Counted from the first letter of the stretch, positions 6,591 through 57,648 are shown. The stretch is 64,000 nucleotides of DNA from an uncultured bacterium (GCA_964564435.1 CAZMAT010000003.1:96451-160450), one strand, 5' to 3'. Translations and numbers: made by a program. Notes: generated from the sequence alone by a model not told the origin.

Positions 6591-7871
6591 TCATTGGGAC
6601 ATGCTCGCCATCGCGTCAAGGAACCTCTTGTTGGACTTGTGCTGGGAGATCTGCTTCTTGAGGAGTTCCATGGCCTCCACGGGATTGAGGTCGACCAGGA
6701 TCTTCCTCATTATCCAGACCTTGCTCAGGGTCTCCTCGTCGAGGAGCAGCTCCTCGCGCCTGGTGCCCGACTTCGTGATGTCGATGGCGGGGAAGACCCT
6801 GCGGTCGGCGAGCCTCCTGTCGAGGACTATCTCGCTGTTGCCGGTTCCCTTGAACTCCTCGAAGATGACCTCGTCCATCCTGCTGCCGGTGTCCACGAGG
6901 GCCGTCCCGACTATCGTCAGGCTACCGCCCTCCTCGGCCTTCCTGGCCGCGCCGAAGAACCTCTTGGGGCGCTGCAGGGCGTTGGAGTCGACACCGCCGG
7001 AGAGGATCTTGCCGGAATGGGGGATCACGGTGTTGTTGGCCCGGGCGAGGCGCGTGATGGAGTCGAGCAGGATCACGACGTCGTGGCCGCTCTCGACCAT
7101 CCTCTTGGCCTTCTCGAGCACTATGTCGGCCACCTGGACGTGGCGCTTGGGGGCTTCGTCGAACGTGGAGCTGATCACCTCGCCCCTGACGTTGCGCTTC
7201 ATGTCCGTGACCTCTTCGGGCCTCTCGTCGATCAGGAGGACGATGAGCACCACCTCGGGGTGGTTTATGGCTATGCTGTTCGCTATGTGCTGGAGGAGTA
7301 TGGTCTTGCCCGCCCGCGGCGGGGAGACTATCAGGGCGCGCTGCCCCTTCCCCAGCGGGGTCAGGAGATCCATGATGCGGCCGCTGAACTCCTCCGAGTC
7401 GTGCTCCAGGATGAAGCGCTCCTTGGGGTAGTAGGGGGTCAGCTCGTCGAAGTTGCGCCGTGTCCTGGCGAGATCGGGGCTCTTCTGGTTGACCGTCTCG
7501 ACCCTGAGGAGGGCGAGGTACTTCTCGCCTTCCTTGGGCTGCCTGACCTGGCCAGATATCGTGTCGCCCGTCAGGAGTCCGAACCGCTTTATCTGAGACG
7601 GGGAGACGTAGATGTCGTTGGTCCCTGGCAGGTAGTTGGATTCGACGGCCCTGAGGAAGCCGTACCCCTCGGGCAGGGTCTCCAGCACTCCCGTCGCGAA
7701 CTCGAGCCCGTTCTTCTCGGTCTGGCTCTCGAGCATCATCTGGATGAGATCTCGCTTCCTGCAACCGGCGATACCCTTGATCTCCATGCTCTTGGCTATG
7801 GCCTGGAGCTCCACCAGCGTCATGCTCTCGAGATCGGAAAGGGAATGACCGTCGAGCGGCTTTTCTACCAT
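6591..7871 (-). CDS. rho: transcription termination factor Rho
   Basis: Full Rho architecture (N-terminal RNA-binding domain, Walker A PPRAGKT, RecA-like core). Start re-picked at [23 protein letters not shown] (ATG at 7871, 426 aa); the track ORF is 51 codons longer. Confidence 0.92.
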
Positions 7872-8029: not shown

Positions 8030-8610
8030 AGAGTCAAGCCCCTTGCTCCGCGTCCGCGGAGCAAGGGGCTGGGAGCGGCAGCACGCTCATCTCCGCGTCC
8101 GCGGAGATGAGCAGGCCCGGCAGTGGCTTGCCAACCCTCCGATTCTCCGGTTCGGCAAGCCGCGAGAGGGCCGGGGTGTATAGTCCAGTCTCGCCTCTGC
8201 GAGACTGGCACGCGCACTCGCAGTTTCCTGCTTGGAAACTGCTGTAGCGCTACCCGTCGATTTCGGCAGGCTGGAAACTGATTTTCATGTCAGCCGAAAT
8301 CGATGATGCGGGAGCGATCCAGCCTGCTGCTCGATATCCTTGCGTCTGACCCGCCGTGAACGCAGGCCGGGCGCCGGGTTCTCTCGCGGTTCGCCCATCT
8401 AGTCGTGCTGGATGCTGGCGAACCACTGTCGAACCTGCTCATTCCCGCCGACGCGGGAAAGAGCGCCCTGCGCAGGATCCAGCCCTTTCCGCGGGCTGTC
8501 TGAAGATCAAGCCCTTCCTTGCGAGGCTTGCACGCATACCCGCGGTTTCCTGCTGGGAAACCGCTGAAATGCTACCCGCCGATTTCGGCGAAGCCGAAAT
8601 CGGAGTATAC
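8030..8610. repeat. hairpin-rich intergenic repeat array upstream of rho, at least two copies of the ~140-bp structured element family
   Basis: At least 8 perfect or near-perfect stem-loops, including 8039-8068 and 8085-8112 (both with loop cgcgtccgcgg), gcagtttcc-tgcttg-ggaaactgc, and cgatttcggc...gccgaaatcg. Shares the agcggcagcacg, ggcacgcgYactcgcagttt and gctacc motifs with the repeats at 53.9-54.4 kb and 57.1-57.4 kb. Confidence 0.7.
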
Positions 8611-8617
8611 TCCCCCG

Positions 8618-10195
8618 GTGAACAGGCGCAGGTTCTCCCGGATCGCCGTGCTGTCGGCCGCCCTGGCGGCGGCCGCCGCATCCTCCCTGGCTTCCCTGCG
8701 GTACGAACCGGGCCCGTGGTCCTGGGCGGCCTCCGCCGTCTGCGCCGCATCGGCGGCGCTCCTTGCCTCTCGCGGCCACCGGGACGGAAACGGCGCGTCG
8801 ACCCACCGGCAGGCATCCGCCGCCGCCCTCGTCCTCTCCTCCGTGAGGCTGACCGGAGGCTTCGGCGGGCCCCTGACTCCGCTCTACTTCCTGCTCCTCG
8901 CCTGGATGGCGGGGCGTCCCGTCCAGGGGCCCGCACTCGAGGCCGGGATCGCCCTGGGACTCGTCGAGGGGCTGCTCACCGCATCCAGGGGCGGCCTGAT
9001 CACCCCCGGTCTCCTGGGCAGGCTTTCGGCGGCTGCCCTGCCTCTCGTCGCACTTCCGGTGTCGTCGCTCGCGCTGGAATGGATGGCATCGGGAGGCGGG
9101 CGCGCGAAAGGTCCGGGGAGCAGATCCGGGCGGACTGGTCCATGCGGGAATGATCCTGCTCCCGTCTCGCAGGGCTGCCTGGAGCTCGTCAAATCGATCG
9201 CCCAGGCCGGCAGTCTCGGCGGGGCCATACACTCGACCGCAGCCTGGCTGGCAGGCTCCGGGAACGATCTGACCGTCACCGTCGGGCTCCTGTCCGGCGA
9301 CAGCGGCAGCCTCGACGTTTACGAATCGCTGGGCCCCCTGGCGCAGGGACGAGTCGGCATGAACTTCGACCTGGAGGGCTCGGTGGCGGGGTGGACCATC
9401 AGGAGCGGCAACTCGATATCGCGCTGCGGCCTCGGGAGCGGCGGGCGGGCCGTCACCACGCTCTCCCGGTCCGATCCATCGACCGTGCGCTGCGGGAGCT
9501 GCTCGGCAGCACCCGTGGTGATCTCCGGCAAGAGCGTCGGAGTCCTGCTCGTCGAATCCCCCTCGGAGGAGGGCACCGGAACCGGAGTCGAGGGGACGCT
9601 CGACCTGGCGGCCGGGCTGCTCGGCCTGGCGATAGAGAAGATCCTCCTCCGCGAGCAGAAGAAGGATCTCCAGAACAGGGACGGTCTGACGGGGCTTCCG
9701 CATCCCGTGGACTTCATGGATTTCGTGAGGCGGACATCGAGGGACGTCTACCGGTTCGGCAGGAGCGTATCCCTGTTCGTGGTGGAGATCGATTCCCTCG
9801 AGGAGGTGAACGCCGCGCACGGTTTGAGGGGAGGGAACAGGCTCCTGTCCGCCTGCGGCGAGAGCCTCGGAGGGATTGCCGGCTCCGAGGCGGCTATCAC
9901 CAGGCTCTCGGCCTCGAAATTCGCGATCTGCATCCCCGGCATGGACCAGGCCGCGGCGGAGGCGTTCGCCGAGAGCGTCGTGAGGAGCTTCGACGGCATG
10001 AAGGTGAAGCTGGAGTCCGGCGAGATATCGCCGAGAGTCGTCGTGGGGGGGGCGGTGACGAGGAGCGACAGGAGGATCGAGTCGCTATGTGCCGAGGCTT
10101 CGCGGGCCATGGTCTCCGCGAGGGCGGTCTCCTCGAGGTTCCAGGTCGCGCTCCTGCTCGCATCCGGACAGAACCACGGGGCCGTCGATCCTTGA
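8618..10195 (+). CDS. membrane-anchored GAF/GGDEF-domain protein with degenerate GGDEF
   Basis: About 5 N-terminal TM helices, a central GAF-like region, and a C-terminal GGDEF fold (GLTGLPHPVDFMDF...LFVVEIDSLEEV...RLSASKFAICIPG). The GG[DE]EF signature is replaced by SASKF. The 5' end of the track ORF overlaps a repeat element, so the start was moved to GTG 8618; this is uncertain. Confidence 0.65.
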   Translation: MNRRRFSRIAVLSAALAAAAASSLASLRYEPGPWSWAASAVCAASAALLASRGHRDGNGASTHRQASAAALVLSSVRLTGGFGGPLTPLYFLLLAWMAGRPVQGPALEAGIALGLVEGLLTASRGGLITPGLLGRLSAAALPLVALPVSSLALEWMASGGGRAKGPGSRSGRTGPCGNDPAPVSQGCLELVKSIAQAGSLGGAIHSTAAWLAGSGNDLTVTVGLLSGDSGSLDVYESLGPLAQGRVGMNFDLEGSVAGWTIRSGNSISRCGLGSGGRAVTTLSRSDPSTVRCGSCSAAPVVISGKSVGVLLVESPSEEGTGTGVEGTLDLAAGLLGLAIEKILLREQKKDLQNRDGLTGLPHPVDFMDFVRRTSRDVYRFGRSVSLFVVEIDSLEEVNAAHGLRGGNRLLSACGESLGGIAGSEAAITRLSASKFAICIPGMDQAAAEAFAESVVRSFDGMKVKLESGEISPRVVVGGAVTRSDRRIESLCAEASRAMVSARAVSSRFQVALLLASGQNHGAVDP

Positions 10196-17086: not shown

Positions 17087-18440
17087 CGACTCTATGAAGA
17101 AGATGGTTTCCCTCTGCAAGAGACTCGGTTTCGTGTTCCAGTCCGGCGAGATCTACGGCGGGCTCCAGTCGGCCTGGGACTACGGCCCGCTGGGCGTAGA
17201 GCTCAAGAAGAACATCGAGTCGAGCTGGTGGGACTTCATGGTCAGGCGCCGCGCCGACGTGGTCGGAGTCGACACAGCCATCATCACGCATCCCGACGTC
17301 TGGAGGGCCTCCGGCCACGTCGAGAACTTCCACGATCCCCTCGTGGACTGCAAAAAGTGCAGGGCGAGGTTCAGGGCCGACCAGATCGAGGGCACGAAGT
17401 GCCCGGAGTGCGGCGGCGAGCTCACCGAGCCCAGGGATTTCGGCCTGATGTTCCGCACGATGATGGGCGCGGTCGAGGATGAGGCCGCCGAGGTCTATCT
17501 GCGCCCGGAGACCTGCCAGTCGATCTTCGTGAACTTCAGGAACATCGTCACGGCGTCGAGGCAGAGCCTGCCGTTCGGCATAGCCCAGATCGGCAAGGCC
17601 TTCAGGAACGAGATCACAGCCAGGAACTTCGTATTCAGGTCCCGCGAGTTCGAGCAGATGGAGATGGAGTACTTCTGCAGGCCCGCTGACGCCGACAGGT
17701 TCTTCGAGTACTGGAAGGGCGAGAGGATGGCGTGGTACCTGTCCCTCGGCCTCTCGAGGGACAGCCTCCGGTTCCGCGACCACGCGAAGGAGGAGCTGGC
17801 CCACTATGCCAGGGCCTGCACCGACATCGAGTTCGCATTCCCGTTCGCCCCCGGGGGGTTCGGAGAGCTCGAGGGCATCGCCAACAGGTCCGACTACGAC
17901 CTCTCGGCCCACATGAAGGCCAGCGGGCAGGATCTCTGGTTCATCGACCAGGTCGCGAACGAGAAGGTGGTCCCCTGGGTCGTGGAGACCTCCGGAGGCG
18001 TGGGGCGCACCATCCTCGCCGTGCTGCTGGACGCCTACCACGAGGATGTGGTGGACGGCCGCGAGCGCGTGACGCTCAGGCTGTCGCCGGCTCTCGCGCC
18101 GGTGAAGACGGCGGTGCTGCCGCTCTCCCGCGCCCTCGAGGGGAAGGCGGCCGGGGTGGCGGACATGCTGCGCCCTCATCTGCCAGTGAGCTTCGACGTG
18201 ACGGGATCGATAGGCAAGCGCTACCGCCGCATGGACGAGATAGGCACGCCCTTCTGCGTCACATACGATTTCGAATCCGAGAACGACGGGGCAGTGACGA
18301 TCCGCGAGCGGGACACGCTCGAGCAGGTCAGGGTCGGGGTGGACAACCTCGCCGACCTCCTCCTCGACTGCCTCAGGAAGGGCTGGGGGCCGGCCATCGA
18401 AAAGGCCGGGCTCTCGGCCGCCGGGAGGGCCTCGGAGTGA
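17073..18440 (+). CDS. glyQS: glycine--tRNA ligase (alpha2 type)
   Basis: 455 aa with class-II GlyRS motifs (FQSGEIYGGLQSAWDYGPLG, Cys-rich insertion CKKCRARF...CPECGG, C-terminal anticodon-binding domain). Confidence 0.9.
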   Translation: MAPSDDSMKKMVSLCKRLGFVFQSGEIYGGLQSAWDYGPLGVELKKNIESSWWDFMVRRRADVVGVDTAIITHPDVWRASGHVENFHDPLVDCKKCRARFRADQIEGTKCPECGGELTEPRDFGLMFRTMMGAVEDEAAEVYLRPETCQSIFVNFRNIVTASRQSLPFGIAQIGKAFRNEITARNFVFRSREFEQMEMEYFCRPADADRFFEYWKGERMAWYLSLGLSRDSLRFRDHAKEELAHYARACTDIEFAFPFAPGGFGELEGIANRSDYDLSAHMKASGQDLWFIDQVANEKVVPWVVETSGGVGRTILAVLLDAYHEDVVDGRERVTLRLSPALAPVKTAVLPLSRALEGKAAGVADMLRPHLPVSFDVTGSIGKRYRRMDEIGTPFCVTYDFESENDGAVTIRERDTLEQVRVGVDNLADLLLDCLRKGWGPAIEKAGLSAAGRASE

Positions 18441-45528: not shown

Positions 45529-45550
45529 TCCGGTGAGTCGGGTGAGTCCG

Positions 45551-45744
45551 GTGTCAGAGGAAAAAATGTAAAGTAATCAGGCTTTTGGAATAGAAGACCG
45601 AAATGTCTTGAGAAATAACGTATTAAAGCACTATATGATCGATGCAACCCATTGCCTGTCTTTTGTTTTCAGGATTCTTGGATTGCATCTTCTTGAGGGT
45701 CCGATTACACGATTCTGATTACTTTACATTTTTTCCTCTGACAC
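45551..45744. mobile_element. MITE-like element: perfect 30-bp terminal inverted repeats flanking a 134-bp AT-rich core
   Basis: gtgtcagaggaaaaaatgtaaagtaatcag (45551-45580) is the exact reverse complement of 45715-45744. The core is ~38% GC against a ~68% GC background, has no ORF, and lies 9 nt from the 3' end of tRNA-Ser. Confidence 0.55.
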
Positions 45745-45753
45745 CGACCGATG

Positions 45754-45844
45754 TGGCGGAGGGGGTGGGATTCGAACCCACGGACCCCACTAGGGAGTCA
45801 ACGGTTTTCGAGACCGCCCCGATCGACCTCTCCGGCACCCCTCC
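45754..45844 (-). tRNA. tRNA-Ser (anticodon CGA)
   Basis: 91-nt reverse-strand cloverleaf: acceptor GGAGGGG/CCCCTCC, anticodon loop CTCGAAA, long variable arm, T-loop TTCGAAT, encoded CCA. Closely resembles E. coli tRNA-Ser. Confidence 0.85.
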
Positions 45845-53658: not shown

Positions 53659-53720
53659 CCTTCCTCCTTCCCTGTCTGGAACCCAAATATACCTCCGCGG
53701 CGTCCCCGGGCAAAAGCGGC

Positions 53721-53750
53721 TTGACGCTGCGTGCCGCCCGCCCATATAAA
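53721..53750 (+). promoter_or_regulatory. putative sigma70-type promoter of tRNA-Asp
   Basis: TTGACG (53721-53726), 18-nt spacer, TATAAA (53745-53750), 17 nt upstream of the tRNA 5' end. Confidence 0.4.
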
Positions 53751-53767
53751 TCCCGCCTGCAAACGGT

Positions 53768-53845
53768 GGTCCGGTAGTTCAATTTGGTTAGAGCACCGCC
53801 CTGTCACGGCGGAAGTTGCGGGTTCGAGTCCCGTCCGGACCGCCA
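53768..53845 (+). tRNA. tRNA-Asp (anticodon GTC)
   Basis: 78 nt: acceptor GGTCCGG/CCGGACC, anticodon stem CCGCC/GGCGG with loop CTGTCAC, T-arm GCGGG-TTCGAGT-CCCGT, discriminator G, encoded CCA. Confidence 0.9.
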
Positions 53846-53862
53846 CTTCCCGCGCCCGCGGG

Positions 53863-54420
53863 AAGTGGCAGCGTCGCCAGCACTGTTTGCGAAGCAAACG
53901 TGCGAGAGACCATCAATCCAGCCTGTCACTCCTGTTCGATTTCGTGTGTCTGACTACTGCTTGCGCCGCAGCATTGCTCGCACTTCTTTCGAGGCTCTTC
54001 AGCTCGCACTGCGGGTCCTTCCGGGGGGCGTTGCCTCCCGTCCCCCTCATTTCGCGAAGCGAAATGAGAAACAAGCGGCAGCACGGTTCGCGAAGCGAAC
54101 CTGCGAGAGCGATCCAGCTGATCTGGTGGCACGCGTACTCGCAGTTTTCTGCGAAAACTGCTGTTACGCTACCTATCGATTCCGCCCTGCGAAATCGATG
54201 AAATTAGAAGGAAGCGGCAGCACGGTTCGCGAAGCGAACCTGCGAGAGCGATCCAGCTGATCTGGTGGCACGCGTACTCGCAGTTTGCTGCGAAAACTGC
54301 TGTTACGCTACCTATCGATTCCGCCCCGCGAAATCGATGAAATAAGAAGGAAGCGGCAGCACGGTTCGCGAAGCGAACCTGCGAAAGCGATCAAGCCTGT
54401 CCTCGAGCCCATGCGGTTCT
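53863..54420. repeat. 139-bp tandem repeat (about 2.3 near-identical copies plus one degenerate copy), each unit carrying three small hairpins
   Basis: Units begin at 54073, 54212 and 54351 (period 139) with only 3-4 mismatches. Internal hairpins are ggttcgc-gaa-gcgaacc, gcagtttt-ctgcg-aaaactgc and tcgatt...aatcga. A degenerate copy at 53863-54072 directly follows tRNA-Asp. Confidence 0.8.
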
Positions 54421-54429
54421 TCACCGTTA

Positions 54430-57120
54430 AGTGGGGCACAGGTCCTGTTCAGCAGCACCGTGCTCTCACCCTGAGTCTGTAGTTCTCGAAGCCCTTGAAG
54501 CCGTTGATGCTCCTGGAGATCTGATTTATCAGCTTGTTTCTGCTTCCGCAAAACAAGCTGGCTGCTATCGGCTCATCACTCTGTGTATCCACGCTGGGTA
54601 AGCTGATAATGTACGTCTACAGAAAATCTGCCCGCTTGTAGTCAACTACACTGTGAAGTCTTGATTGTCGACCCATCAGAGAATCCATTGCGCTTCTACA
54701 AGCAACAGGTTCAAGATCATTTCTCTGTAAGCAACGACGAGTTCTCCATCGATCCTGTGTTTCGAATCTGACGGACGCGGAAGCGTAAAAGGGCTCTAAG
54801 TCAATGTAGCAATCGACATTGGGCAACTACTTATATGCGGTATGATGCCGTGCTGGTCAGTATTCGACAGGCCATACCCATGCGGCTTCTTCGGACATTT
54901 GGTTGACATGGTTGCTCCCGCATACTAGTCATCGATCACTACTCACACTGAGTAACAACAGTTGCGGCATCTTCAGGGGGGTTGACGATGGGCATCGCCT
55001 TGGTTGCGCTTATCGTTACCGGAACACTGAACCTCACCAGTTATAACGTATGGAAACCGGCTTCGTGGAACAGGGCAGACGCTCGGGATCTGGTGATATC
55101 ATCTGTAACGGGTAATCCGGTTGTTGCAGGAGGCAGATGAAACATAGTCGGAGGCTCCGGTGGAGCCGATGAAGGAGAGTTCCGGGTCTGGGAATTTGAT
55201 CTTGCATCGCTTGGAACAACACCTCCTGCTGGTAGTGAGCCCTATCTATGGACATACGCGTATGCTGGAAGCACTGACTACTCTTCTCAGAAAGCACATG
55301 CACTTACTGCGTACGGATCCACGGAAGAAAACGAGAGCTACCTCGTAGCCGGCCATGACCACTACTGGCTCGGTCCGGTGCCGCACCTGCTCATATCGGA
55401 CTTGTATGTAGCAGGTGGATCTTCTCCCATTGGATCAGACCATCAATTCGAACGACCTGGTTCTGTCATGCCCGAGGCGAATGACATAGTCTACATTGAT
55501 GACATCAGTTCATTCGTCACCGGCTCTACCGGTGCAGGAATGGCTACCTGCGGAACCTATCGCCCAGGCGAAGGGTATCCCAAGCAGCCTTTCCTTCAGA
55601 TATCGGACATCGATGACTATTCGACGGTCTTCCCTGGTCTTTCGTCATCATCCTGGGGAAGAAGCCTCGGAGCAGTAGTATACGACTCGGAAAACAGCAT
55701 CATCGTTGCAGCCGGCATGTCTACGGGTTCGCCTTCAACGAATAGAATAGATAGAATAGTGATCTGCGGCTATAACCGATTCATAGGAGCCGTCGAGAAC
55801 TCCTTCTCGCTTGGCAGCTGCTTCTTAAGTGAAAACGAAGTCGAAGCATACAGACCGCCTCTTGTGGATCTCGGCGGAGGATTCTATCTGTATTTGACCA
55901 GCATACAAGGGCCGGTGGACATCTCGGGTTACTCATGGCACGGAGTTATCGCTACATTGTGGAAGTACAGCAATAATGGCGGAGTCGCGTCGATCAACTG
56001 CGTATCAAGTGACATCTGCAGGATACAGAACATCGCCGGCTACAGCAAGTTCTCCGACTTCATACCATTTTCGATAGGGCTTACCGAGAGCTTTGGAAGT
56101 TCCGGCGGTGACGCTGTCGTGCTGATTAACTCTAGATACACAGATGCACGGGAAGAGATCGACCAGTCCCGCCTTGTTGTTGGTACCGTGAATGTTGTTA
56201 TGGGATCTTCGCCAACAGTTGATATTGCAGACGGAGTCAATGATTTCCAAACGATACGGATACTACCAGAGCAGGAGTTCCAATCGGGTTGCGCGTACCA
56301 GGCCATGCTGGGGAACGAATTTGTCTTTACCGATTGCAGCAGCAGTGAGGCTTTTTCTGGAACCGGAGTAGGTGTTTTCTACAAGAGCCTGACATGTCAT
56401 GATTACAAGAAGATCTGGCTCTTCCAGATATCGCCGTCGAACGCAGAGGCGTCGATTGTACCGATGACGGAGCGAGAAGACCAGACCTATCCAGCGTCAG
56501 AAGTGAGCTTCCATCTGACCTCTAATCCGGTAGTGGATGGCGTTGTCGAAATTGCCACGAATGGGACGATTTCGACAGGTACAGAGGCTTTGTTGTTTGA
56601 TGTTTCGGGGAGGATGATCGGTCGAACCAGCCCCGATGTCTCTGGCACTTTCAGAATCGCAAGCGTTCATGGATGCCCTCTGCCAACTGGTGTCTATACT
56701 GCCGTGGTTACCCAGAACGGGGAGGCGTGCTTCGTTAGTACATGCGCTGTCATTGACTAAATGACATAGTGCTGCGACCAGCTTTGTGGGCTGCGCCTGC
56801 GCAGCCCACAACCTTATTGCTAACTAGTGTGGACGACGCATTACAAAGAGACAAGGTTCAATATAAGCTAGATTGTGATATTCAACCGCTTCATAGTACA
56901 ATGGGTGAGTTTCCGGTGTTGGAGTCATTTTCTCGACAGCAGAGTTCTTCCCTTATGCCTTATCTCAGTCCAGATGCTCTAGCACTCAACCTTTGCTATC
57001 CCAGCTGCCAGCGGCCTTATCGATTCTCCTAACTAGAACGCTTTGATGCTCCAAGCCTGACCGTGCTGAACCATTTACAGAAACCCCAGCAGACTAACAT
57101 TCCAACAGGTGATCCATATC
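54430..57120. mobile_element. low-GC (~50%) islet adjacent to tRNA-Asp, bracketed by copies of the hairpin-repeat family, no recognisable mobility genes
   Basis: Sharp compositional drop against the ~68% GC background. Located 3' of a tRNA gene, with repeat copies on both borders (53863-54420 and 57125-57370). A single large ORF lies inside. Confidence 0.6.
54988..56760 (+). CDS. islet-encoded Ser/Gly-rich secreted protein with T9SS-type C-terminal sorting domain, containing an in-frame TGA at 55138
   Basis: ATG 54988 has an AGGGGGG RBS. Reads MGIALVALIVTGTLNL... (hydrophobic N-terminus) for 50 codons, TGA, then the same frame continues 540 codons. The C-terminus (NPVVDGVVEIATNG...ALLFDVSGRMIG...GVYTAVVTQNGEACFV) matches the Por/T9SS CTD pattern. 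A stem-loop with GGU-containing loop lies 12 nt after the UGA. The track reports only the 55378..56760 part. Confidence 0.5.
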
Positions 57121-57124
57121 AAGT

Positions 57125-57370
57125 GTGATCCTTGCATCAACGACCCTTCACTCACGCATACGTGGATTGATGATGTGGCCTGCACGGTTCTCACGCGGAG
57201 AACGTGCGAAAGCGAACAGGTTGCCCAGATACTCAAGCCGGAATACCCGTGCACTCGTGCCTGACGGAAACCTTGATCCGCCCGAGGTGGATCAAGGCAC
57301 GCCCTGTCGCGGTTTCCCTTCGGGAAACCACTGTCGGGCTACCCATCGATTCCGCTTCGCGAAATCGATG
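57125..57370. repeat. right-border copy of the hairpin-repeat family
   Basis: cgcggtttccc-ttcg-ggaaaccac tgtcgggctacccatcgattccgcttcgcgaaatcgatg parallels the 139-bp unit (gcagttttctgcgaaaactgctgttacgctacctatcgattccgccctgcgaaatcgatg). The upstream part has gcacggttc...gcgaaagcgaac similarity. Confidence 0.55.
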
Positions 57371-57381
57371 TGACGATCCGG

Positions 57382-57648
57382 CTACTCCAGCATGACCAGC
57401 CGGTGGGCCGAAGCTCCTGACTGCGTCGATATCCTCACGAGATAGACCCCCGGAGCGAAGCCGCCGATCCCGGTCTCGTTGACCCCGGCCGCCGCCGGGA
57501 TCGCAGGTGCTTCCTGCACGATCCTCCCCGAGACGTCGAAGACCGACACGTCCACGGCCGCCGCGGAACCGAGGACGAATCTCACGGTAGCCAGGCCCGC
57601 CGCCGGATTGGGGAAGACGCACGACAAGGATATGATCCCGTGGTGCAT
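57382..57648 (-). CDS. orphan 88-aa ORF consisting only of a T9SS-type C-terminal sorting domain (likely gene remnant)
   Basis: MHHGIISLSCVFPNPAAGLATVRFVLGSAAAVDVSVFDVSGRIVQEAP...GVYLVRISTQSGASAHRLVMLE shows the CTD pattern with no catalytic or cargo domain. It abuts the islet border repeat. Confidence 0.45.
   Translation of the reverse strand: MHHGIISLSCVFPNPAAGLATVRFVLGSAAAVDVSVFDVSGRIVQEAPAIPAAAGVNETGIGGFAPGVYLVRISTQSGASAHRLVMLE

Follow-up and report, generated by a model that had tools for sequence, protein, structure and literature searches.

The intergenic region upstream of rho in the genome of an uncultured bacterium is filled with hairpins that recur behind a tRNA-Asp gene and at the border of a low-GC islet, which raises the question of what kind of element they represent. 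The preliminary description of this DNA saw in them a family of ~140-bp structured repeats, for which it offered two alternatives, a REP/BIME-type extragenic repeat or a small structured RNA, and it considered them a possible recombination substrate that had delivered the islet. The stretch of DNA analyzed (64,000 nt, GCA_964564435.1 CAZMAT010000003.1:96451-160450) is referred to here as the window. The host is a high-GC (~68%) member of Candidatus Fermentibacteria, the Rho protein of which shows 75-78% identity to proteins named after Fermentibacteria or Aegiribacteria and 87-98% identity to the Rho proteins of closer relatives. The rho gene (6591-7871, − strand) and a GGDEF gene (GTG start at position 8618, + strand) are divergent, and the 746-nt spacer between them houses the repeat cluster (8030-8610). 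The window includes two tRNA genes, tRNA-Asp (53768-53845, +) and tRNA-Ser (45754-45844, −). We consider it somewhat probable that the clusters are a lineage-specific extragenic palindromic repeat built like the E. coli REP/BIME-2, with REPIN-like doublets.

Anatomy of the repeat

The ~140-bp unit proved to be a composite, and the basic element, named R, is only ~50 nt long. R has a head, GG(T/A)AGC-N4-CA, a 9-bp stem with a bulged C, GCA(C)GGTTYSC/GSRAACC-TGC, and a tail, GAG(A/T)GCG. It is found as two distinct subtypes that are ~70% alike: X, with head GGAAGC and tail GAGAGCGATCCAGC, and Y, with head GGTAGC and tail GAGTRCGCGTGCC. X units have the bulged C, as do the Y units of two relatives (loci L035 and L037, described below). 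The sequence GTAGC is present in every Y unit whose head end is aligned, in three species, mostly as GGTAGC and in one L037 unit as CGTAGC; in Y, 7 nt separate the GTAG from the stem, and X carries GAAG instead.

The module that consists of agcggcagcacg, a hairpin, and ctgcgagagcgatccagc is X, that is, R on the + strand, while the so-called hairpin 1 with its flanks (ggcacgcgYactc, hairpin 1, and tgtWacgctacc) is Y, or R on the − strand, when reverse-complemented. The identity of X and Y as one element was recognized first from cross-hits of an iterated nhmmer profile on the opposite strand and then by alignment. The agcggcagcacg sequence and hairpin, which had been described as a separate upstream module, are indeed present but represent the hairpin 1 element inverted.

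X and Y form tail-to-tail inverted doublets across a spacer, the sequence of which differs between copies and yet includes a hairpin in each one (8185-8208, 57271-57297, ccag...ctgg in copies C and D, and caagcc...ggcttg in copy B). A third palindrome, hp2, formerly hairpin 2, is located at the head-to-head junctions. X, spacer, Y, and hp2 together constitute a 139-bp module that is tandemly amplified after tRNA-Asp. The predicted minimum-energy folds are made of local hairpins, with head-to-head pairing limited to a short helix, and not of one long hairpin.

Copies and clusters in the window

An nhmmer profile of the composite unit detected five full copies in the window, all on the + strand, and no others (E 1e-25 to 6e-29). 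They were designated A (8195-8302), B (8518-8624), C (54117-54216), D (54256-54354), and E (57284-57395). A 19-base fixed-spacing motif, GAAACNNCTGNNNNGCTACCNNNCGATT, occurs five times in the window when up to 2 mismatches are allowed, versus 0.00 expected. These results agree with the initial count of at least five copies of a conserved unit. The same orientation ascribed to them applies to the composite but not to the basic element R, which occurs in both orientations, and the ggcacgcgYactc sequence ascribed to each copy is not found in copies B and E, which have tgcacgcataccc and ggcacgccctgtc, respectively.

A covariance model of R (R1), built on 19 units, identified 10 strong units in the window with scores of 36-63 bits and alternating orientation, starting at 53867 (+), 54068 (+), 54127 (−), 54207 (+), 54266 (−), 54346 (+), 57169 (+), 57295 (−), 8206 (−), and 8528 (−). 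An unfiltered local search added a long-loop variant (8110-8177, +) and a degenerate unit (8373-8439, −). The rest of the window (~60 kb) and the loci L018, L019, L020, and L038 gave no further units with the covariance model. All strong hits, in the window and in the relatives, are extragenic and lie in the rho-GGDEF spacer, the tRNA-Asp trailer, or the tRNA-Ser trailer.

The rho-GGDEF cluster begins with a hairpin that has a perfect 15-bp stem (8037-8070, +) and occupies an hp2-like position before an X-type head. This head, GGAGCGGCAGCACG, followed by a 12-bp hairpin and lacking the standard tail, defines a weak R-like unit (8071-8112, +; 5.3 bits). The two hairpins (8037-8070 and 8085-8112) have ctccgcgtccgcggag in common, as expected from the earlier mention of two more hairpins with identical loops upstream of rho. 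They are followed by the long-loop R variant, named Z (8110-8177, +; AGGCCCGGCAGTG, hairpin, CGCGAGAGGGCC; 14.5 bits), and by a hairpin in the spacer between tail-to-tail units (8185-8208), the sequence of which is not conserved between copies. The Y unit of copy A (8206-8257, −; head GGTAGC, tail GAGTGCGCGTGCC; 54.3 bits), previously read as ggcacgcgcactc, hairpin 1, and tgtagcgctacc, is adjoined by the copy A hp2 (8257-8303), which folds with 11-bp arms and a 25-nt loop. Farther downstream are an orphan X-type tail, GCGGGAGCGATCCAGC, without a stem (8304-8323, +), a degenerate R unit with a 21-nt loop, CGACAGT-GGTTCGCC...GGCGAACC-GCGAGAG (8373-8439, −; 13.8 bits, E 7.6e-4 in a search of 751 nt), the Y unit of copy B (8528-8579, −; 44.3 bits), and the copy B hp2 (8579-8603), whose 3′ arm continues into the sequence GGAG 14 nt upstream of the GGDEF GTG start.

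Behind tRNA-Asp the first structure is a trailer hairpin (53840-53871, +) that begins inside the 3′ end of the tRNA gene (GCCA), and the first unit is a diverged X, named X0 (53867-53917, +; 47.5 bits), whose position is conserved in the L035 species. A remnant of the T-arm and 3′ end of tRNA-Asp, CGGGGGGCGTTGCCTCCCGTCC, which has lost ggaccgcca, is followed by an hp2-type hairpin at 54046-54068 (54022-54068, +). The first 139-bp composite (54068-54199, +) includes R units at 54068-54118 (+, 60.6 bits) and 54127-54176 (−, 48.5 bits) and hp2 at 54176-54198; the second (54207-54338, +) includes R units at 54207-54257 (+, 63.2 bits) and 54266-54315 (−, 47.0 bits) and hp2 at 54315-54337. A third R unit (54346-54396, +; 61.6 bits) with the start of a spacer (54346-54410) is the ancestral partner of copy E. 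The doublet is split by an inserted islet of ~2.9 kb (54411-57290) with a G+C content of 50% versus ~68% around it, defined by G+C content and by comparison with a relative. A diverged R unit (57169-57221, +; 36.2 bits) and a spacer hairpin (57271-57297) are found in the right end of the islet. Copy E (57295-57368) consists of a Y unit (57295-57347, −; 52.7 bits), orthologous to an L035 Y unit, and hp2 (57346-57368).

Tandem Repeats Finder reported an array at 54061-54396 with a 139-bp period, 2.4 copies, and 95% matches, in accordance with the two tandem 139-bp units described before. The two composites, which correspond to copies C and D, are 96% identical and are the product of a recent tandem duplication specific to the window.

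The rho-GGDEF cluster was 100% identical across independently assembled contigs from seven sequencing runs and is therefore not an assembly artefact. Short-read contigs pass unbroken through copies A and B; therefore, these units share no 31-mers with other loci, which argues against the many near-identical copies of a young or recently active high-copy REPIN population. In short-read (Logan) assemblies of this species, numerous independent contigs stop exactly at ~54102, inside the tandem X unit, or at ~8087-8090, within the second hairpin of the pair with ctccgcgtccgcggag. Local repeats account for both breaks, and genome-wide copies are not needed to explain them.

Distribution among relatives

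Related genomes were reached through neighboring proteins. In one species (L032-L036), whose Fer4_5 protein is 84% identical to that of the window, X, Y, and hp2 units are found behind tRNA-Asp. In a second one (L037, a 2.5-Mb genome with a Fer4_5 protein 63% identical), units are found behind tRNA-Asp and an array of ~800 nt is located behind tRNA-Ser. The R and hp2 members of these two Candidatus Fermentibacteria species have diverged from those of the window. No units were detected in the 12 kb examined of a more distant genome (L038), and none in the rho-GGDEF spacers of three relatives with Rho proteins 96-98% identical, which are 278-452 nt long versus 746 nt in the window. The tRNA-Ser trailer of the window has no R/hp2 array. 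Therefore the clusters have been gained and lost at the species level, and the rho-GGDEF cluster, being missing in close relatives, is not a conserved regulator of rho or of the GGDEF gene.

The copy B hp2, if transcribed, could mask the ribosome-binding site of the GGDEF diguanylate cyclase; relatives express this enzyme without the hairpin. Directly downstream of tRNA-Ser(cga), at 45549-45746, the window has an AT-rich element of ~198 bp, the terminal inverted repeats of which are perfect over 31 bp (GGTGTCAGAGGAAAAAATGTAAAGTAATCAG; 43 nt at 88%); it is MITE-like in appearance and present as a single copy in the window. In L037 the array of ~800 nt occupies its place behind the same tRNA-Ser.

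A scan for AAACNNCTGNNNNGCTACCNNNCGATT in 185,579 species genomes and in JGI metagenomes returned only chance hits, coding-like in nature. The sequence is specific to the species of the window, the relatives carrying GAACC..GCTG instead, and because the motif is too narrow to detect these relatives the negative scans say little. A broader X-unit pattern gave five chance matches in viral contigs, with scores of 16-18 bits versus 36-63 bits for real units, and no match was found in plasmid and phage collections. A six-frame peptide search of the array against 5.8 billion proteins produced no match even at an E value of 10.

Selection on pairing

Once the relatives were added, the R stem could be aligned for 19 units from three species and hp2 for 13 copies. 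In the R stem 98.8% of the cells are paired and six of nine pairs have changed on both sides. None of 500 shuffles reached the observed values, although related sequences without structure can exceed such a pair-count control too, and when the partner strand was slid only 19-43% of cells were paired. For hp2 the corresponding figures are 95.7% of cells paired and compensatory changes in seven of nine pairs. All folds were far more stable than those of shuffled sequences (z −3.3 to −7.1). The Z variant provides a further case: its flanks, AGGCCCGGCAGTG and CGCGAGAGGGCC, are kept in the window and in L037 (~17541-17598, ~17745-17804, and, on the other strand, 6537-6480), and the hairpin that they enclose has been exchanged for a different sequence that is still paired. 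On these alignments, selection on pairing is well supported. Covariation that keeps the stems paired had been proposed from the window copies, with loops and spacers free to vary; the first part stands, but the linkers turned out to be conserved as well.

These data bear on the simplest explanation of the clusters, namely that they are plain segmental duplications of a tRNA trailer in which the palindromes were merely inherited, with no selection on structure. A tandem pair as similar as copies C and D, the location of the majority of copies within one hot-spot region, and the permissiveness of the shuffle control are what one would expect under that explanation. Nevertheless, we judge it highly improbable: when both helices are taken together, 13 of 18 stem pairs have changed on both sides while 96-99% of cells remain paired, compared with 19-50% in the slid controls; the hairpins of the spacers and of Z were replaced by unrelated sequences that still pair; and units occur at unlinked loci, behind two different tRNA genes, in three species.

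The islet and the tRNA-Asp hot spot

Comparison with L035 shows how the islet came to lie between two copies of the repeat. A match to window positions 54342-54410 (90% identity) is separated in L035 by only 12 nt from a match to 57298-57370 (81% identity); therefore the segment between 54411 and ~57290 was inserted into a doublet, in the spacer between its X and Y units. Since ancestral spacer sequence remains only on the left side of the islet, a crossover within the units is excluded and the breakpoint must be in the spacer. Judging from these alignments, copies D and E on either side of the islet are paralogues of long standing and did not arise from the insertion, and the idea that the repeats served as the recombination substrate that delivered the islet had to be abandoned. 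No terminal repeats or target duplication of the islet were found, and no CCGTCCGGACCGCCA direct repeats flank it, this sequence occurring in the window only in the tRNA itself. A test of the repeats for MITE features detected no target-site duplication or defined termini, and the empty sites of the relatives were unalignable at the borders. Insertion sequences such as ISPpu9 are known to target REPs (PMC12288879), and so a cluster that served as a landing site would not be unusual.

The islet includes an ORF of 460 codons (55378-56760) without a Pfam match, the product of which has a C terminus that resembles a T9SS sorting tail. The ORF carried by the cassette at the same hot spot in L037 codes for an unrelated protein of 448 amino acids, and thus the cargo differs between species. 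Next to the islet, on the − strand (57382-57648), there is an 88-amino-acid ORF that consists solely of a Por_Secre_tail (T9SS C-terminal sorting) domain (E 3e-9), with the stop codon adjoining copy E; a truncated gene is its probable origin.

The tRNA-Asp trailer of the relatives has the appearance of a hot spot for serial integration, with several copies of the tRNA-Asp 3′ end, CCGTCCGGACCGCCA, beyond the gene. In L037 copies are found at 8872-8858, 8487-8473, and 6822-6808, with degenerate ones near 6950, 6670, and 5610, and in L035 the sequence recurs ~510 nt beyond tRNA-Asp. Between the repeats lie small modules, such as an element of ~135 nt seen three times, and single-ORF cassettes coding for 448 and 165 amino acids. 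Behind each repeat comes either a hairpin and an X-type unit or the ~135-nt module, which has no R units. Some repeats are preceded by a T-arm-like stem and GGTCC, and could pair as an acceptor minihelix. In the window only the truncated remnant of the tRNA 3′ end remains (54022-54043).

This organization led us to consider the units as ends or recombination sites of small integrative cassettes inserted at tRNA genes, that is, as sites for a recombinase that would be functionally comparable to attC. The CCGTCCGGACCGCCA repeats that delimit modules and the cassettes with 448- and 165-amino-acid ORFs in the relatives fit this proposal, as does the presence of other cargo, the 460-amino-acid ORF, in the equivalent place of the window within a low-GC islet bordered by R units. 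However, the islet lacks flanking tRNA 3′-end repeats, the R units at its sides are not recombinant halves of each other, the crossover having taken place in the spacer, and neither the rho-GGDEF cluster nor the L037 tRNA-Ser array has cargo or tRNA-end repeats. In addition, neither a tyrosine recombinase nor an integron integrase was found among the scanned window ORFs, nor was an integrase found at the related loci, and the units, with their two or three short near-perfect hairpins, do not have the hallmarks of attC (a single long imperfect hairpin with RYYYAAC/GTTRRRY cores). A role as cassette sites is therefore quite unlikely in our opinion.

A more elaborate version, to which we would give only a slim chance, is that the R/hp2 clusters are recombination or processing sites of an undescribed tRNA-linked cassette system, in which single-gene cassettes carrying genes for T9SS-secreted proteins and lipoproteins would be loaded behind tRNA-Asp beside the hairpins, while transcription from the tRNA promoter would extend through the arrays, to be followed by cleavage at tRNA-like minihelices. 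Such a system would be an analogue of the integron in function, anchored on a tRNA gene.

DNA element or RNA

At three of the four loci the repeats begin directly behind the CCA of a tRNA gene and run in its direction, with no U-tract terminator between the two. This position is not predicted by REP biology and could reflect a role at the RNA level. The arrays might then encode structured non-coding RNAs that share a transcript with the tRNA-Asp or tRNA-Ser ahead of them and are processed to hairpin-rich trailer RNAs, which could act as 3′ external transcribed spacer sponges, as scaffolds like REP325/naRNA4, or as cis-regulators of the GGDEF gene. A sigma-70-like promoter, TTGACG-18-TATAAA, is located directly 5′ of tRNA-Asp (53720-53755) and is kept in the relatives, which suggests that this lineage uses canonical −35/−10 promoters. 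The conservation of single-stranded linkers while the stems covary, the stability of the folds relative to shuffled sequences, and the abutment of the copy B hp2 on the ribosome-binding region of the GGDEF gene are compatible with an RNA, and many E. coli REP clusters are transcribed, one of which (REP325/naRNA4) acts as RNA (PMC4550694).

On the other hand, the unit is found in both orientations within one array, so that no single RNA strand is defined, and the rho-GGDEF spacers of close relatives, as mentioned above, have no cluster that could regulate either gene. In a search of Rfam 15 at gathering and permissive thresholds only the two tRNAs reached the gathering score and the repeats gave nothing below an E value of 0.89. 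The units were also searched for promoter-like and terminator-like sites of their own, and none were found. A full tally on the tRNA-sense strand gave about equal numbers of G.T and A.C mismatches; DNA palindromes are expected to show both types of transition on one strand, whereas G.U would predominate in a single-strand RNA gene. An inference of the − strand from these mismatches was dropped in view of this tally, and a strand inference from folding energies gave mixed results, both strands folding about equally well. The small structured RNA alternative of the preliminary description has in consequence gained no positive support, and the search of Rfam suggested there identified no family for the repeats; we regard tRNA-linked trailer RNAs as unlikely, although the units may nonetheless be transcribed.

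How extragenic palindromes of the REP/BIME kind would work in this host can be outlined by analogy. The hairpins would act in single-stranded nucleic acid. Replication slippage, or an HUH Y1 (RAYT-type) enzyme with its gene in another part of the genome, would allow the clusters to spread and vary. Read-through from the upstream tRNA, or into the GGDEF 5′ leader, would generate stable stem-loops, and these could block exonucleases, attenuate transcription, or mask a ribosome-binding site. Both mobilization by a RAYT-type enzyme and any role at the RNA level are extrapolated here from REP/BIME systems.

Significance

The clusters are a real BIME/REPIN-like mosaic of extragenic palindromic units, new for this phylum and of a kind already known. 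REP/BIME-type repeats have been characterized almost entirely in Proteobacteria, and finding this grammar in an uncultured candidate phylum of anaerobic digesters would widen the known range of a genome-structuring element. The covariance model R1, together with the X and Y subtypes and hp2, provides a concrete model for finding the cognate enzyme. In practical terms, short-read assemblies of the lineage break in the clusters at tRNA-Asp, and the clusters mark a hot spot where cargo genes vary by species. The tRNA linkage and the hot spot of repeated tRNA-Asp 3′ ends in the relatives are the least ordinary aspects, and they leave a small chance that something more novel is involved.

Comparison with known systems

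A tandem repeat behind a tRNA gene has a precedent in E. coli, where the region distal to tyrT is said to include 3.14 repeats of a 178-bp unit, each with the last bases of tRNA-Tyr (Egan and Landy, 1978). The arrays described here are similar in that they lie right behind a tRNA gene in the same orientation and, in the relatives L035 and L037 and as a remnant in the window, include copies of the tRNA 3′ end. Unlike the tyrT-distal repeats, which are locus-specific and have no inverted palindromic units, R units are also found away from tRNA genes.

REP325/naRNA4 of E. coli (PMC4550694), a transcribed REP cluster with two palindromic units per repeat, acts as an RNA, and the arrays could likewise act at the RNA level. 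REPINs are inverted REP doublets, often in tandem, with a spacer that is unconserved except for its folding (PMC3337134), and those of Pseudomonas fluorescens (PMC3116915, PMC3337134) share with the X-Y pairs the inverted doublet, the unconserved but folding spacer, and the tandem arrangement of doublets. They differ in that the halves of the X-Y doublets are different subtypes, in that local hairpins are predicted, and in that there is no sign of hundreds of copies.

Another close counterpart is the E. coli REP/BIME-2. E. coli BIMEs combine two REP types in inverse orientation with linkers, and have a 5′ GTAG and an essential stem mismatch; BIME-2 elements are repeated in tandem, with good conservation among the copies of one locus and differences in copy number from strain to strain (PMC3333891). 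The REP/BIME-type assignment of the preliminary description is borne out on architecture, since two subtypes alternate, the linkers are conserved, the composite is in tandem, the units are extragenic, and clusters are present or absent depending on the genome. There are several differences. The GTAG is 7 nt from the stem instead of adjacent to it and is carried by only one subtype, an unrelated third palindrome, hp2, is found at every head-to-head junction, and the period is 139 bp. The copy number is apparently low, against typically more than 100 per genome for REP/BIME repeats, the copies have diverged, and the link to tRNA trailers is strong. Neither the scanned window ORFs nor the genes tabulated for related loci (L018, L037) included a Y1/RAYT or other transposase gene. 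Nevertheless, as in E. coli REP/BIME-2 with its y and z2 units and its S, s, l, and r linkers (PMC3333891, PMC2817692), short imperfect palindromes of two subtypes alternate tail-to-tail and head-to-head, with conserved flanking motifs that include, in one subtype, a head-side GTAG and with an unpaired base in the stem. They lie outside genes, form composites that are tandemly amplified with high identity within a locus, and make up clusters that differ between related genomes, here in Candidatus Fermentibacteria and not in Proteobacteria.
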